This document shows, piece after piece, positions 25,129 to 56,583 of a DNA stretch of 64,000 nucleotides (its first letter is position 1; each line of letters starts with the position of its first letter). The notes beneath the pieces were generated by a model. It saw only the letters and a list, made by a program, of their open reading frames with translations. It was not told the DNA's origin and made no database searches. This DNA is from a virus. The position numbers and the translations under genes are program-made. The DNA lies in the UHGV virus genome UHGV-1363143, one strand, 5' to 3'.

Positions 25129-28100
25129 ATGAAAAACTTTACTCATATACACGTACATGATTATTTTAGCTTCTTAGATGGATACGGCTCACCTGCAAGT
25201 AAAGCAAAGAGAGCTAAAGAACTAGGAATGACAGCAATAGCTACAACTAACCATAATCACTTAGGAGGTTGTGTAGAATTCCAAAAAGCTTGCTTTGATG
25301 AAGGAATTAAGCCAATACTTGGAGTAGAACTTTATTACACAGAAGATACTTCTATATTAAGTAAAGATTCAAAAGTAAGGTATCAATTAGCTTTAGATGC
25401 AGCCACTGAGGCTGGAATAGTAATACCACCAAAGGCTAAGAAGAAAGATATAGCAGAATTAATAGCTCCATATGAATATAATACAAAGCAACACCACATT
25501 ATATTCTTAGCAAAGAATCAAACTGGCTGGAAAAACTTAATTAAGCTACAATCAGAAGCTGCTAAGGTATGCACTTATAATGGAAGATTCCTATGTGATG
25601 ATGATATGATACTTAAATATAGAGAAGGTCTAATAATGACTACTGCTTGCTTAGGTAACATAGTAAATCAATATTTTATTAAAGGCAAAGTAAAAGAAGC
25701 ATATAATCAACTAGATAAATGGCATACTATATTCGGTGAAGATTTTTACATTGAAATACAACCTTTAAATCAAGGCGATCAAGCATTATGCAACTATTAT
25801 TTAATTGAATATGCAAAAACTCATAATATTAAGATTATAGCAACTAATGATTCGCACTATACTTATGAAACCGATATAGATGACCATGATACATTATTAT
25901 GTATAGGGTTAGGTAAATTAAAAGAAGACAAGGATAGGATGAAATACGCTCCTGAATTTTGGTTAAGAAGTTATGAAGAAATGCAAACTGCATTTACAGC
26001 ACAATATTTAAACAGTCCTCTTTTAAGAGAAAAGATGTCTTTGGAAGAATACTTAGCTGTTACAGAACTTGCACTAGATAATACTAACTTAATAGCTGAT
26101 AAAGTAGAAGCAAATATAAAGCTTGGTTCGGACAAGCCAATACTTCCAAAACTTGATATACCAAACGGATTTACATCAGAACAATACTTAACTCTATTAT
26201 CATACAAAGGTTTATTTAAATACTTATCAAAACATAAAGAATTAAACATACAAGAATACTTAAATAGATTAGCCTTTGAATTAAATGTAATCAACACTAA
26301 AGGATATGCTGACTACATGCTTATAGTTAAAGACATAGTTGACTGGTGCCAGGAAAATGATATTCCAGTAGGTCCAGGTAGAGGAAGTGCAAGTGGTTCA
26401 TTATGCCTATTCGTTAATGGAATTACTAAGTGTATAGATCCTATAAAATATGGATTACTATTTTCAAGATTCTTAACTATGGATAGAACAGCTTTACCTG
26501 ATATTGACACTGACTTCTCATATTTAAACAGACAAGAAGTTATTCAATATTTAAGAGATAAATATGGAGAAGACTGTGTATCGTTCATAGGAACTTATAC
26601 TGAATTAGGTGTAAAGAATGGACTTAAAGATGTTGGTAGAGTTCTTAATATAGATTTTACTACAATGAATGCATTATCTAAAAAGATAGATGAATGGACA
26701 GGAGAAGCTCCTTCAATTAAATTCAAAGATTTAGATAAGCTTGCTAATGGTAATGCTATGGATAAAGAAATCTATGAAGAATTTAAAGAAACTGAAAACC
26801 AATACTCAGAATTATTTAGATTAGCTAGAGCATTTGAAGGCACACCAAGAAACCAAGGTGTTCATGCTTCAGGAATATTGGTTACTCCAATGCCAATAAA
26901 TGATATGTTTCCTACAAGAGTTGATAAAGAAGGAAACTTAGTTACATTATACACTGGACCACAAGCTGAAATGGTTGGTGGAGTTAAGTTGGATATACTA
27001 GGACTTAAAACTCTTGATGTATTAGATTTAACAATTAAAGCAGTTAGCCCTGAAGCAACAGTATATCAATTATACGATATTGTAGATGGTCATTTAGATG
27101 ATGAGGAAATGTTCTCAGCATTATGCAGAAAAGAAACTGAAGGTATCTTCCAATTAGAATCAGCTTTATTTAAAGGAATGATTTCAGACATGCTACCAGA
27201 TAAGTTGGATGATATAACTCTTATTACTTCATTCGGTAGACCTGGACCATTGAGTGCTGGACTTCATACTGAATTTGCGAATAGAAAGAAAGGCGAAAGT
27301 GAAGCAAGAGAACCACTTCCTAATACATGGGATATAGTAGAGGATAGCTTAGGTGTATTAGCTTACCAAGAACATACAATGAGAATAGCTCAAAGAGTAG
27401 CTGGATTTGATGATAACCAAGCGGACTCATTCCTTAGAAAGGCTCAAGCAAAGAAAAAGAGAGCATTACTAGACCTATGTAATCAATGGTTTGTATATGG
27501 AAAGATTAATGAAGAGCCACCAACTGGATATGATTATGAAAACAAGAACCAACCTTATTATGATCCAACAGCTAAATATGGCTCAGAAATTAAGGGTGGA
27601 ATAGCAAATGGATATAACGAACAAGATCTTATAGATTATAACCATATGATAGATGGATTCTGCTCATACCTATTTAATAAGAGTCATGCATGTGCATATT
27701 CATTTATAAGTGTTTGTACAATGTACTTAAAGACTTATTATAGACCTCAATTCATGGCTGCATTATTAAGCTTACAATCTAAGCCAGAAAAGATAGACTT
27801 ATATTGCAAGGTTGCACAAGGATATGGAATAGAAATGGCAGCACCAAATATAAACCTATCTAATGAACACTTTACTGCAATAGATAATAAAATCCTATAT
27901 GGATTAGGCTCAATAAAGGGAGTAGGGGCTACAGCAATTCCAACACTAATAGCATGCAGACCTTATACAGATGTTGCGGATGCATATGAGAAAGCTGGTA
28001 AAAAAGCATTCAATAAAAAGATTGGTGAATCTTTAATAAAAGCTGGAGCATTTGAGTTCCAAGATGAAAACAGAAACAAAGTTCTTAATATCTTCCAAGA

Positions 28101-28560
28101 TGTTAGAAAAGCCAAAAAGGAAGAAAGATTCGATGAAGAAGCTTATAATGAAGCACTTTGTATTGAATATGAGAAGAATACTCTTGGTAGTGCAATAACT
28201 TACAGACCATATTGGGATACAGTACAAGCTGGAGAAGTAGTTAATGTAACTATGACTCTTAAATCAGTAAGAGAGAAGATAGATAAGAACGGTAATATGA
28301 TGGCGTTCATAAATGTTGACATAGAAAACACAGACTTAAAAGGAGTTGTGTTTGCAAGCACTTACTGTAAGAATGTAGATGTTTTTGATATGAACTTAAA
28401 TACAGAGGTCTATGCTACAATTAAGAAAGATGATAAAGGCGGCTTTATAGTAAATAGAATATTAAAGACTCCACCTAAAACAAAAATAAATACTCCAAAA
28501 GAAGTTACTGATAATATGATTGGGACATTCGATAAGTTATTATCAAGAGTAGCAAGCTAG
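25129..28560 (+). CDS. dnaE: DNA polymerase III alpha subunit, DnaE-type (copy 1)
   Basis: PHP N-terminus [26 protein letters not shown]...[13 protein letters not shown], and catalytic PDIDTDF. Confidence 0.85.
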   Translation: [1143 protein letters not shown]

Positions 28561-56300: not shown

Positions 56301-56583
56301 CTTTATAACCTTGTTTGTTCTTAGCTAATAATACTAAATGATAATACCCTTTTTGTTTTTCAGTACGGTCATTGCACTCATAGGCTTCTAATCCTATTAA
56401 TGGCTTGACACCATGTTCATTGCACTCTTTGTAAAATTCAATTACATTGGCCATAGAACCATGGTCAGTAATAGACAATGCTTCTATGCCTATATTCTTG
56501 GCTTTCTTCACAGCATCCTTAGTTTTTAGTATGCTGTCACCAATTGAACCTTTCGCATAGTGCATGTGTAAAGGTATATACAT
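53395..56583 (-). CDS. dnaE: DNA polymerase III alpha subunit, DnaE-type (copy 2, divergent paralog)
   Basis: PHP domain ([14 protein letters not shown]), [33 protein letters not shown], and catalytic PDVDLDV. Confidence 0.85.
   Translation of the reverse strand: [1062 protein letters not shown]

Follow-up and report, generated by a model that had tools for sequence, protein, structure and literature searches.

The window analyzed here is a 64,000-nucleotide stretch of the virus genome UHGV-1363143, and it carries two genes for DnaE-type (C-family) DNA polymerase III alpha proteins, here called E1 and E2, on opposite strands. The window is part of a ~241-kb human-gut jumbo phage genome: an IMG/VR contig of 241,249 bp holds both genes with the spacing unchanged (99% identity for E1, 96% for E2), and contigs from human-gut metagenomes hold E2 sequences identical to that of the window. 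Of the ~241-kb genome, ~84 kb was examined. Tail-fiber and virion proteins and a large NlpC/P60 lysin are encoded in the window, which is therefore that of a tailed phage. Its genes form two converging arms, a plus-strand arm from position 1 to ~31 kb and a minus-strand arm from ~31.5 to 64 kb, with an even GC content of ~30% over both. The two polymerase genes are as follows.

25129..28560, plus strand: E1, full-length DnaE-type C-family polymerase, 1143 amino acids; PHP, palm/thumb, fingers, HhH and OB regions and a variable C-terminal tail
53395..56583, minus strand: E2, full-length DnaE-type C-family polymerase, 1062 amino acids; PHP, palm/thumb, fingers, HhH and OB regions, ending at the OB fold

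Architecture and Classification of the Two Polymerases

Both open reading frames (ORFs) lie at the positions and on the strands given in the first-pass annotation, and each has the full Pfam architecture of a DnaE protein. The PHP, DNA_pol3_alpha, DNA_pol3_finger and HHH_6 models score above their cut-offs in E1 and E2 (core-domain E-values of 1e-70 and 4e-67 for the two polymerases), and E2 has a weak OB-fold match; no RNase_T/Exo domain was found with Pfam in either protein. The motifs that had drawn attention to the pair are present as well, GPGRGS...GSL...DPIKYGLLF(S/E)RF and a palm motif that reads PDIDTD in E1 and PDVDLD in E2. The best matches among solved structures are M. tuberculosis DnaE1 (PDB 5LEW) and T. 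aquaticus DnaE (PDB 2HPI), with E-values of 1e-126 to 1e-134. Beyond the OB fold, the tail of E1 varies from 0 to 45 amino acids across its family.

The two proteins are 27% identical end to end by BLASTP (E = 9e-115), and an all-against-all BLASTP of the window ORFs found no other paralogous pair. A duplicated replication module was considered and rejected on this result, and the matching sizes of some neighboring genes (167/163 and 458/456 amino acids) are a coincidence, since no paralogy extends beyond E1/E2. Both polymerases pass the superfamily model TIGR00594 (E1 778 and E2 682 bits; cut-off 434). Neither passes the DnaE equivalog NF004226 (786.8 and 691.3 bits; cut-off 1002), the model NF005298 for DnaE of the Gram-positive type, or DnaE3 (755.8 and 701 bits; cut-off 1260), or the model NF004225 for error-prone DnaE2 (364.5 and 352.5 bits; cut-off 939). 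The PolC model NF001688 is not passed either, its matches covering part of the core only (124.7 and 150.5 bits; cut-off 873). Judged by these profile scores, E1 and E2 are DnaE-form C-family polymerases that fall outside all four bacterial groups, DnaE1, DnaE2, DnaE3 and PolC.

The fingers of E1 contain an insertion of ~30 amino acids (27496-27597, ~residues 790-823) that is conserved in the E1 family and absent from other DnaEs. Residues Y790, G791, K792, N794, Y811, D812, G818 and G823 of this insertion are invariant, and it is a candidate family-specific interaction surface. In relatives, the E1 and E2 genes are often interrupted: some contain intein or LAGLIDADG domains, and some matches span 4.3-4.7 kb or are split (P0017 and P0054; for E1, L048, L051, L053, L056 and L246-L259; for E2, L074, L137, L131 and L133). 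Elements of the intein/LAGLIDADG type usually target conserved sites of essential genes.

Conservation of the Catalytic and PHP Sites

Conservation was assessed in alignments of 117 E1-family and 116 E2-family cluster representatives, which reach down to ~43-48% identity with the window proteins. The first-pass annotation had described an intact catalytic triad within the PDxDxD motif. The triad is intact in both proteins, but it is not made up of that motif alone, as only the first two aspartates of PDxD belong to it and its third aspartate lies ~160 residues further on, in K-x-D. These palm residues (D458, D460 and D622 in E1; D440, D442 and D602 in E2) are invariant throughout their respective families. 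The corresponding catalytic aspartates of the E. coli enzyme are D401, D403 and D555. Also invariant in both families are the GRGS loop, the lysine of K-x-D, the finger arginine, and the glutamine and glutamate of the YQE motif, the tyrosine of which is replaced by phenylalanine in some members.

The earlier view that an obvious proofreading domain is lacking in both proteins is misleading, given that all nine PHP metal ligands are kept in both. The ligands were assigned through alignment to the M. tuberculosis and T. aquaticus DnaE structures, with which the nine positions agree residue for residue. They are H8, H10, D17, H42, E67, H123, C174, D241 and H243 in E1 and H6, H8, D16, H41, E66, H82, C132, D242 and H244 in E2, and every one of them is invariant within its family. 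In both families, conservation of the PHP domain equals that of the polymerase core. The nine-ligand PHP site is kept in PolC and in non-proteobacterial DnaE1, where it has been linked to Zn-dependent proofreading, while it is disrupted in DnaE3 and most DnaE2 proteins (Timinskas et al., 2014; PMC3919608). E1 and E2 thus carry the sequence prerequisite for PHP-based 3′-5′ proofreading, and because the ligands are invariant in both families, both polymerases are probably proofreading-capable through a built-in exonuclease.

No inactivating substitution was found in either copy, all palm catalytic residues and PHP ligands being unchanged across the two families. Compared with the near-identical IMG/VR relative, the ratio of nonsynonymous to synonymous substitution rates (dN/dS) is 0.11 for E1 and 0.07 for E2. 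Both genes are under purifying selection and neither is decaying. Synonymous divergence from the near-identical IMG/VR genome (L001, L003) is 0.056 in E1 and 0.30 in E2, which points to a different history of the E2 region, through genome mosaicism or recombination with a more distant relative.

Distribution and Ancestry of the Pair

Homolog searches with E1 and E2 led to two separate families, and contigs of equal length turned up among the hits of both. When IMG/VR was scanned with the family alignments, following the earlier suggestion to look for the pair in other genomes of the group, 24 of 30 contigs with an E1-family gene were found to hold an E2-family gene too; the remaining six are fragments, or E2 was undetected within reach. 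In all 24 paired contigs the two genes are on opposite strands, converging and 10-46 kb apart. The same arrangement recurs across IMG/VR, ENA, Logan, JGI and NCBI isolate assemblies. Among the latter is a Bacillus atrophaeus isolate (GCA_036210065.1; L014, L015) in which both genes lie on a 235,551-bp contig (JARLZA010000013.1). This contig also has ParA/ParB genes by the start of the E2 arm and a tyrosine recombinase, and thus probably represents a plasmid-prophage whose host can be cultivated. Contigs of ~237.5 kb from B. spizizenii carry an E1 homolog (MCY8890530.1, MCY7865909.1 and MEC0841988.1), the only one of the two genes looked at there. One ENA contig of 370,505 bp (ERZ25039478 contig_9150; L139-L142) has two E1 and two E2 genes, in sets 251 kb apart that are moderately diverged in a neighbor-joining tree. 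It was considered as a phage with four polymerases and rejected, as the contig is a join of two related ~251-kb genomes.

The first-pass annotation took E1 and E2 to be old paralogs and not a recent duplication, and this view is borne out. At ~27-30% identity, the two fall into separate clades: in neighbor-joining trees of 36 and 113 DnaE sequences, E1 and E2 are each monophyletic with 100% bootstrap support, and they are sisters in 1% (36-sequence tree) and 0% (113-sequence tree) of replicates. As the stem branches of both clades are long, any long-branch attraction would tend to unite the two and not to keep them apart. Deeper nodes of these trees are weakly supported, and no specific origin is claimed for E1 or E2. 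Pairwise distances in E1 and in E2 co-vary over 24 genomes (Mantel r = 0.85, with 0/5000 permutations as high), E2 evolving slightly faster (mean p-distance 0.51 vs. 0.47 for E1). Given the co-varying distances, the separate clades and the conserved arrangement, the common ancestor of the clade already possessed the pair, and transmission since then has been vertical. Vertical inheritance since that ancestor excludes two explanations raised at the outset: a mis-assembled chimera is incompatible with the many independent assemblies that carry the pair, and a recently fused second replicon with the co-divergence of E1 and E2.

Phages with a DnaE-type polymerase had been taken to carry one host-like copy. 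The pair is indeed unusual among deposited phages, as had been suggested: DnaE matches occur in 1445 GenBank phage records, at most 9 of which match in a second place. Some of these nine or fewer may be intron- or intein-split genes. No record among GenBank phages and PLSDB plasmids exceeds 35% identity to E1 or E2, and no member of the clade was found among them; Bacillus plasmid-prophages of the pBtic235 type have a single, intein-split DnaE. The searchable literature yielded no report of two DnaE or Pol III alpha genes in one phage, which is no proof that the pair is unreported. DnaE in phages and two C-family polymerases in bacteria are both already known.

Gene Neighborhoods of E1 and E2

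The neighbors of E1 were counted over 31 E1 loci with 10-kb flanks. E1 closes a conserved arm, in which it is preceded by the following genes and followed by a hairpin.

14753..15766, plus strand: archaeo-eukaryotic-type primase (AEP; DNA_primase_S, PriCT_1); the same gene is present in the B. atrophaeus element
15782..16855, plus strand: DnaB-like replicative helicase (DnaB_C); 21/31 E1 loci, the 10-kb flank limiting this count
19051..19752, plus strand: conserved 233-amino-acid protein with a weak PD-(D/E)XK nuclease match (E = 3.6e-4, below the Pfam cut-off); 26/31 E1 loci
20144..20695, plus strand: DUF1064 protein, annotated in PHROGs as a Holliday-junction resolvase; 29/31 E1 loci
20695..21579, plus strand: sigma-70 region-4-containing factor (Pfam); 29/31 E1 loci
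22500..24230, plus strand: RecJ-like DHH/DHHA1 exonuclease (Pfam), a few small ORFs upstream of E1; 31/31 E1 loci
28566..28591, plus strand: terminator-like hairpin 6 nucleotides past the E1 stop codon, kept in the close relative L001

For E2, neighbors were counted over 27 loci. Its arm has a different set of genes.

60864..62762, minus strand: NAD-dependent DNA ligase upstream of E2; within the flank in 11/27 E2 loci, and present in the B. atrophaeus element
56611..56634, minus strand: terminator-like hairpin ahead of the E2 start, after the upstream gene; a hairpin with a changed stem occupies the same site in L003
53365..53389, minus strand: terminator-like hairpin just past the E2 stop codon, from the hairpin scan of the window
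51921..53291, minus strand: DUF6094 protein (Pfam) immediately downstream of E2; directly after E2 in 24/27 E2 loci
43736..46783, minus strand: SNF2/ResIII-type helicase, 1015 amino acids; 24/27 E2 loci, directly after DUF6094 in most relatives

Upstream of E2, a Mu Gam-like protein and a DnaG-type primase are encoded in 13 E2 loci. In the near-identical relative of the window phage the DnaG-type primase gene is at contig position 159272-160420, 19 kb upstream of E2 and on the same strand, a position just beyond the right end of the window. In order, the E2 arm is Gam, DnaG primase, NAD ligase, E2, DUF6094 and SNF2 helicase. Primases, helicase-type motors and polymerases are thus each present twice in this phage, and the two primases belong to different families.

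In the DUF6094 protein the catalytic motifs are degenerate and a C-terminal block, PLLPFNxGQxGLxLxSGxxDG, is invariant. The AlphaFold model of the protein (predicted local distance difference test, pLDDT, 84.5) consists of a helical domain, a Rossmann class I methyltransferase-like core and a beta-hairpin domain. PHROGs, a sequence search of the PDB, Foldseek and PADLOC returned a generic S-adenosylmethionine (SAM) methyltransferase-like fold for this protein and no functional lead. Nor did PADLOC give specific matches that would make E2-DUF6094-SNF2 a known defense system (DISARM, BREX, Zorya or Dpd): E2 and DUF6094 had no matches, and the SNF2 protein had weak, partial helicase-domain matches to ZorD, DpdE and DrmD. 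In the lineage of the window only, a FolD-ThyA-LemA-DHFR island (47665-51638, minus strand) is inserted between DUF6094 and the SNF2 helicase. Just upstream of E2 and two genes apart are a ThiF/E1-like protein (57563-58324, minus strand) and a Prok-E2_D protein (58932-59633, minus strand); PADLOC matches them weakly to its E1-E2 and BilD models, and they are a predicted ubiquitin-like conjugation pair on a phage.

The three hairpins listed above share an A-tract/T-tract and the pattern AAGAY..G...C..RTCTT; all are beside E1 or E2, and the pattern has no other match in the window. A shared operator flanking the two genes was considered and rejected, since the pattern was derived from these same sites and recurs only in the near-identical relative. 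The hairpins are probably ordinary intrinsic terminators that bound E2 as a separate transcription unit. A fourth hairpin marks the point where the arms meet.

31277..31298, no strand assigned: bidirectional terminator-like hairpin at the convergence of the arms, coinciding with the cumulative GC-skew maximum

The convergence zone (~31000-32600) fits genes co-oriented with replication and a terminus-like region between E1 and E2.

A Sister Clade With a Reduced E2

The scan for DnaG primases also found a large sister group, with contigs of ~150-236 kb, many of them from Human Microbiome Project samples. The gene order in this group is Gam, DnaG primase, a DnaE-like ORF of 486-553 amino acids, an ORF of 374-461 amino acids that is DUF6094-like in part of the group, and the SNF2 helicase. 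The short DnaE-like protein (mini-E2) is without a PHP domain and matches the first half of the palm profile and the fingers only, and it keeps the GRGS, DxD, KxD, YQEQ and NKSH motifs. Bootstrapping over 398 shared columns placed the mini forms with E2 in 99 of 100 replicates, and with E1 in none. Examples from IMG/VR sister-clade contigs are the following.

L195, 10380-11861: mini-E2
L174, 11697-13157: mini-E2
L201, 11654-13126: mini-E2
L166, 14001-15662: mini-E2

Sixteen sister-clade contigs also carry, ~100-125 kb away, a full-length, PHP-containing E1, which is accompanied by RecJ as in the clade of the window. With a mini-E2 and a full E1 on the same contigs, the two-polymerase state is older and wider than the clade of the window. 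The two partners are not equivalent: E1 is always complete, while E2 can shed its proofreading, thumb and OB regions and yet stays linked to the primase and SNF2 genes. The mini-E2 proteins may be the smallest natural single-chain C-family polymerases.

Other Features of the Genome

Several genes of the window are apart from the two polymerases. An RtcB RNA ligase (34111-35325, minus strand) and RlaP, a pol-beta family protein of an RNA-repair pathway (41472-42254, minus strand), resemble the RNA-repair kit described for jumbo phages. A tyrosine recombinase (39507-40472), a small N6-adenine DNA methyltransferase (40539-41231) and an AntA/Bro/KilAC antirepressor (32597-33853), all on the minus strand, are features of a temperate or plasmid-like kind, here in a jumbo phage. 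Past the right end of the window and upstream of the E2 arm (L143) are genes for a Cpn60/GroEL chaperonin, a PemK-family toxin, a NUDIX protein and an HU-like protein. The anaerobic ribonucleotide reductase NrdD and its activase are encoded in L143 as well, and the reductase indicates an anaerobic host. Scans of the window for tRNAs and Rfam families gave no matches, and promoter scans gave matches no commoner than in shuffled sequence.

Comparison With Known Systems

Two-polymerase forks occur in cells, with PolC and DnaE in Bacillota and Pol delta and Pol epsilon in eukaryotes, and both the manner of the split and the reason for it are debated. The phage pair can be compared with PolC and DnaE (DnaE3) of B. 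subtilis and other Bacillota, as in both cases there are two C-family polymerases, the second of them linked to a DnaG-type primase and a helicase (PMC3664799, PMC5737612, PMC12309361). DnaE of Bacillota, in complex with primase and helicase, elongates primers that are then handed off (PMC3664799, PMC5737612). The likely hosts of these phages, Bacillus and low-GC gut anaerobes, use this same PolC + DnaE logic. Unlike PolC, E1 and E2 are without the PolC domain order, in which an OB fold lies N-terminal to PHP, and without an exonuclease inserted in PHP; unlike DnaE3, they keep the PHP metal site; and unlike both Bacillota enzymes, they have no QxxLF clamp motif.

In Actinobacteria and Proteobacteria, DnaE1 and DnaE2 (ImuC) are likewise two DnaE paralogs per genome, one of them accessory (PMC3919608). 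In contrast to DnaE2, E1 and E2 fall far below NF004225, have an intact PHP site and were not seen beside ImuA/ImuB-like genes. The proofreading DnaE1 enzymes (5LEW, 2HPI) share all nine PHP metal ligands with the phage proteins, residue for residue, but differ from them in that E1 and E2 lack the tau-binding C-terminal domain and the clamp motif and stay below every NCBIfam DnaE equivalog cut-off.

Among phages, the jumbo "group 3.2," with phage G of Bacillus and phage c-st of Clostridium, resembles the window phage in infecting Bacillota and in having a PHP-bearing DnaE-type polymerase and an NAD-dependent ligase (PMC7824862). These phages have one host-like Pol III alpha per genome (Iyer et al., 2021; PMC7824862), as opposed to the two co-inherited genes found here. 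In the T4-like "group 2.2" jumbo phages, a minimal split Pol III alpha, that is, a reduced C-family core, exists beside a full replicase, a situation comparable to mini-E2. It has been suggested that this minimal core aids the family B replicase in one-strand synthesis or repair (Iyer et al., 2021; PMC7824862). The likeness is by description only, and there are differences: the partner here is a DnaE and not a family B polymerase, mini-E2 is a single polypeptide, and the E2 of the window is full length. The DnaE of Moorella phage MTATph1 (176 kb), the closest one from a cultured phage, is 35% identical to E1 and 30% identical to E2 and neighbors E1 in the neighbor-joining trees. MTATph1, unlike the window phage, has a single DnaE place in its genome.

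A Possible Division of Labor

A division of labor between the two polymerases, proposed in the first-pass annotation, stays the best reading; gene context and the reduced E2 of the sister clade support it indirectly, and which polymerase does what is our own assignment. From the presence of both genes, their intact catalytic and PHP residues, purifying selection, co-inheritance and synteny, and from the reduction of E2 alone in the sister clade, we infer two enzymatically active DnaE-type polymerases with PHP proofreaders, E1 as the main replicase and E2 as an accessory polymerase with the DnaG-type primase and the SNF2-type helicase, a model that we believe and doubt in about equal measure. 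In this model E1, which is always full length and closes the conserved replication arm, would carry out the bulk of replication as the main replicase. E2 would act alongside two proteins of the converging arm, the DnaG-type primase and SNF2-type helicase, and its task would be short-patch synthesis, either primer extension on the lagging strand or synthesis at restarted or recombination-derived forks. Such a scheme would resemble the PolC + DnaE system of the Bacillota hosts, built here from two DnaE paralogs.

Several findings weigh against this assignment. The E2 of the window clade keeps a full PHP site, HhH and OB, and is in this respect as replicase-like as E1, unlike the error-prone DnaE3. 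Linkage to primase and helicase genes is no proof of physical or functional coupling. The DnaB-like helicase, the usual partner of DnaG, sits in the E1 arm, and both arms may serve one replisome. No conserved QxxLF clamp-binding motif, internal or C-terminal, is recognizable in the E1 or E2 families; in a scan for Qxx[LMIV][FLWYM], the YQEQ finger motif was the only conserved site, and the final 20 residues were free of matches in every member. The tau-binding C-terminal domain is also absent from both proteins, which limits any judgment of their processivity.

It is possible, though we think it rather doubtful, that E1 alone replicates the genome and that E2-DUF6094-SNF2, with the upstream Gam, is dedicated to repair, fork restart or recombination-dependent synthesis. 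This explanation overlaps with the division of labor set out above, as E2 is accessory in both. The order E2, DUF6094, SNF2 is the tightest linkage observed (24/27 loci, contiguous in most), the Gam-like protein encoded upstream of E2 in 13 loci is of an end-protecting kind, and helicases of the SNF2 type are typically remodeling or repair motors and not replicative helicases. Loss of the PHP, thumb and OB regions from the sister-clade E2 would fit short-patch synthesis as well. However, a pure repair polymerase would have no need of the DnaG-type primase in the E2 arm. E2 scores 352 bits against a DnaE2/ImuC cut-off of 939, Pfam scans of the window ORFs turned up no ImuA/ImuB-like or Y-family domains, and in the clade of the window the PHP site is intact, unlike in most DnaE2 and DnaE3 proteins.

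Alternatively, the two polymerases could be split by lifestyle, one serving low-copy maintenance as a plasmid-prophage and the other lytic amplification, which we regard as unlikely. The ParA/ParB genes and tyrosine recombinase of the 235.5-kb B. atrophaeus contig are in keeping with such a split, as are the tyrosine recombinase and antirepressor of the window, and the sigma-like factor of the E1 arm suggests separately programmed transcription. Yet no plasmid Rep initiator was seen beside E1 or E2, no ParA/ParB was seen within 10 kb of the genes of the window, and a primase is present in both arms. Furthermore, known plasmid-prophages use host polymerases for maintenance.

That one copy is non-catalytic or decaying, retained as a structural subunit or as a decoy for host or anti-phage inhibitors, is very improbable: E2 does evolve slightly faster and is truncated in the sister clade, but the catalytic and PHP residues are invariant in both families, dN/dS is 0.07-0.11, and even mini-E2 retains its polymerase motifs. 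An artifact, whether from chimeric assembly or from two replicons that fused recently, each with its own polymerase, has a negligible chance of explaining the data, since the opposite strands, the two converging arms and the precedent of the joined 370,505-bp contig are outweighed by the recurrence of the same pair and arrangement in many independent assemblies, the even GC content over both arms and the co-divergence of E1 and E2, and any fusion would be older than the whole superclade.

Implications for Jumbo Phage Replication

On a broader level, we tentatively propose, with doubt outweighing confidence, that this group of jumbo phages, known from human-microbiome metagenomes and Bacillus isolates, evolved its own two-polymerase fork from two DnaE paralogs. 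Host beta-clamp and tau contacts would apparently go unused, because neither protein has a clamp motif or the C-terminal domain; a DnaG-type primase and an SNF2-type motor would be the coupled partners of E2, which in one clade would have been pared down to a minimal C-family polymerase, a single chain of ~490 amino acids. Experiments on the question are feasible because sequenced isolates of B. atrophaeus and B. spizizenii contain such elements, 235-237 kb in size. Two DnaE lineages kept together through deep divergence offer a compact, genetically separable system in which to study the role of a second polymerase, and mini-E2 offers enzymology a natural minimal C-family polymerase. If the proposal is true, these phages would represent an independent viral origin of the asymmetric two-polymerase architecture of the Bacillota type, together with a natural minimal DnaE.

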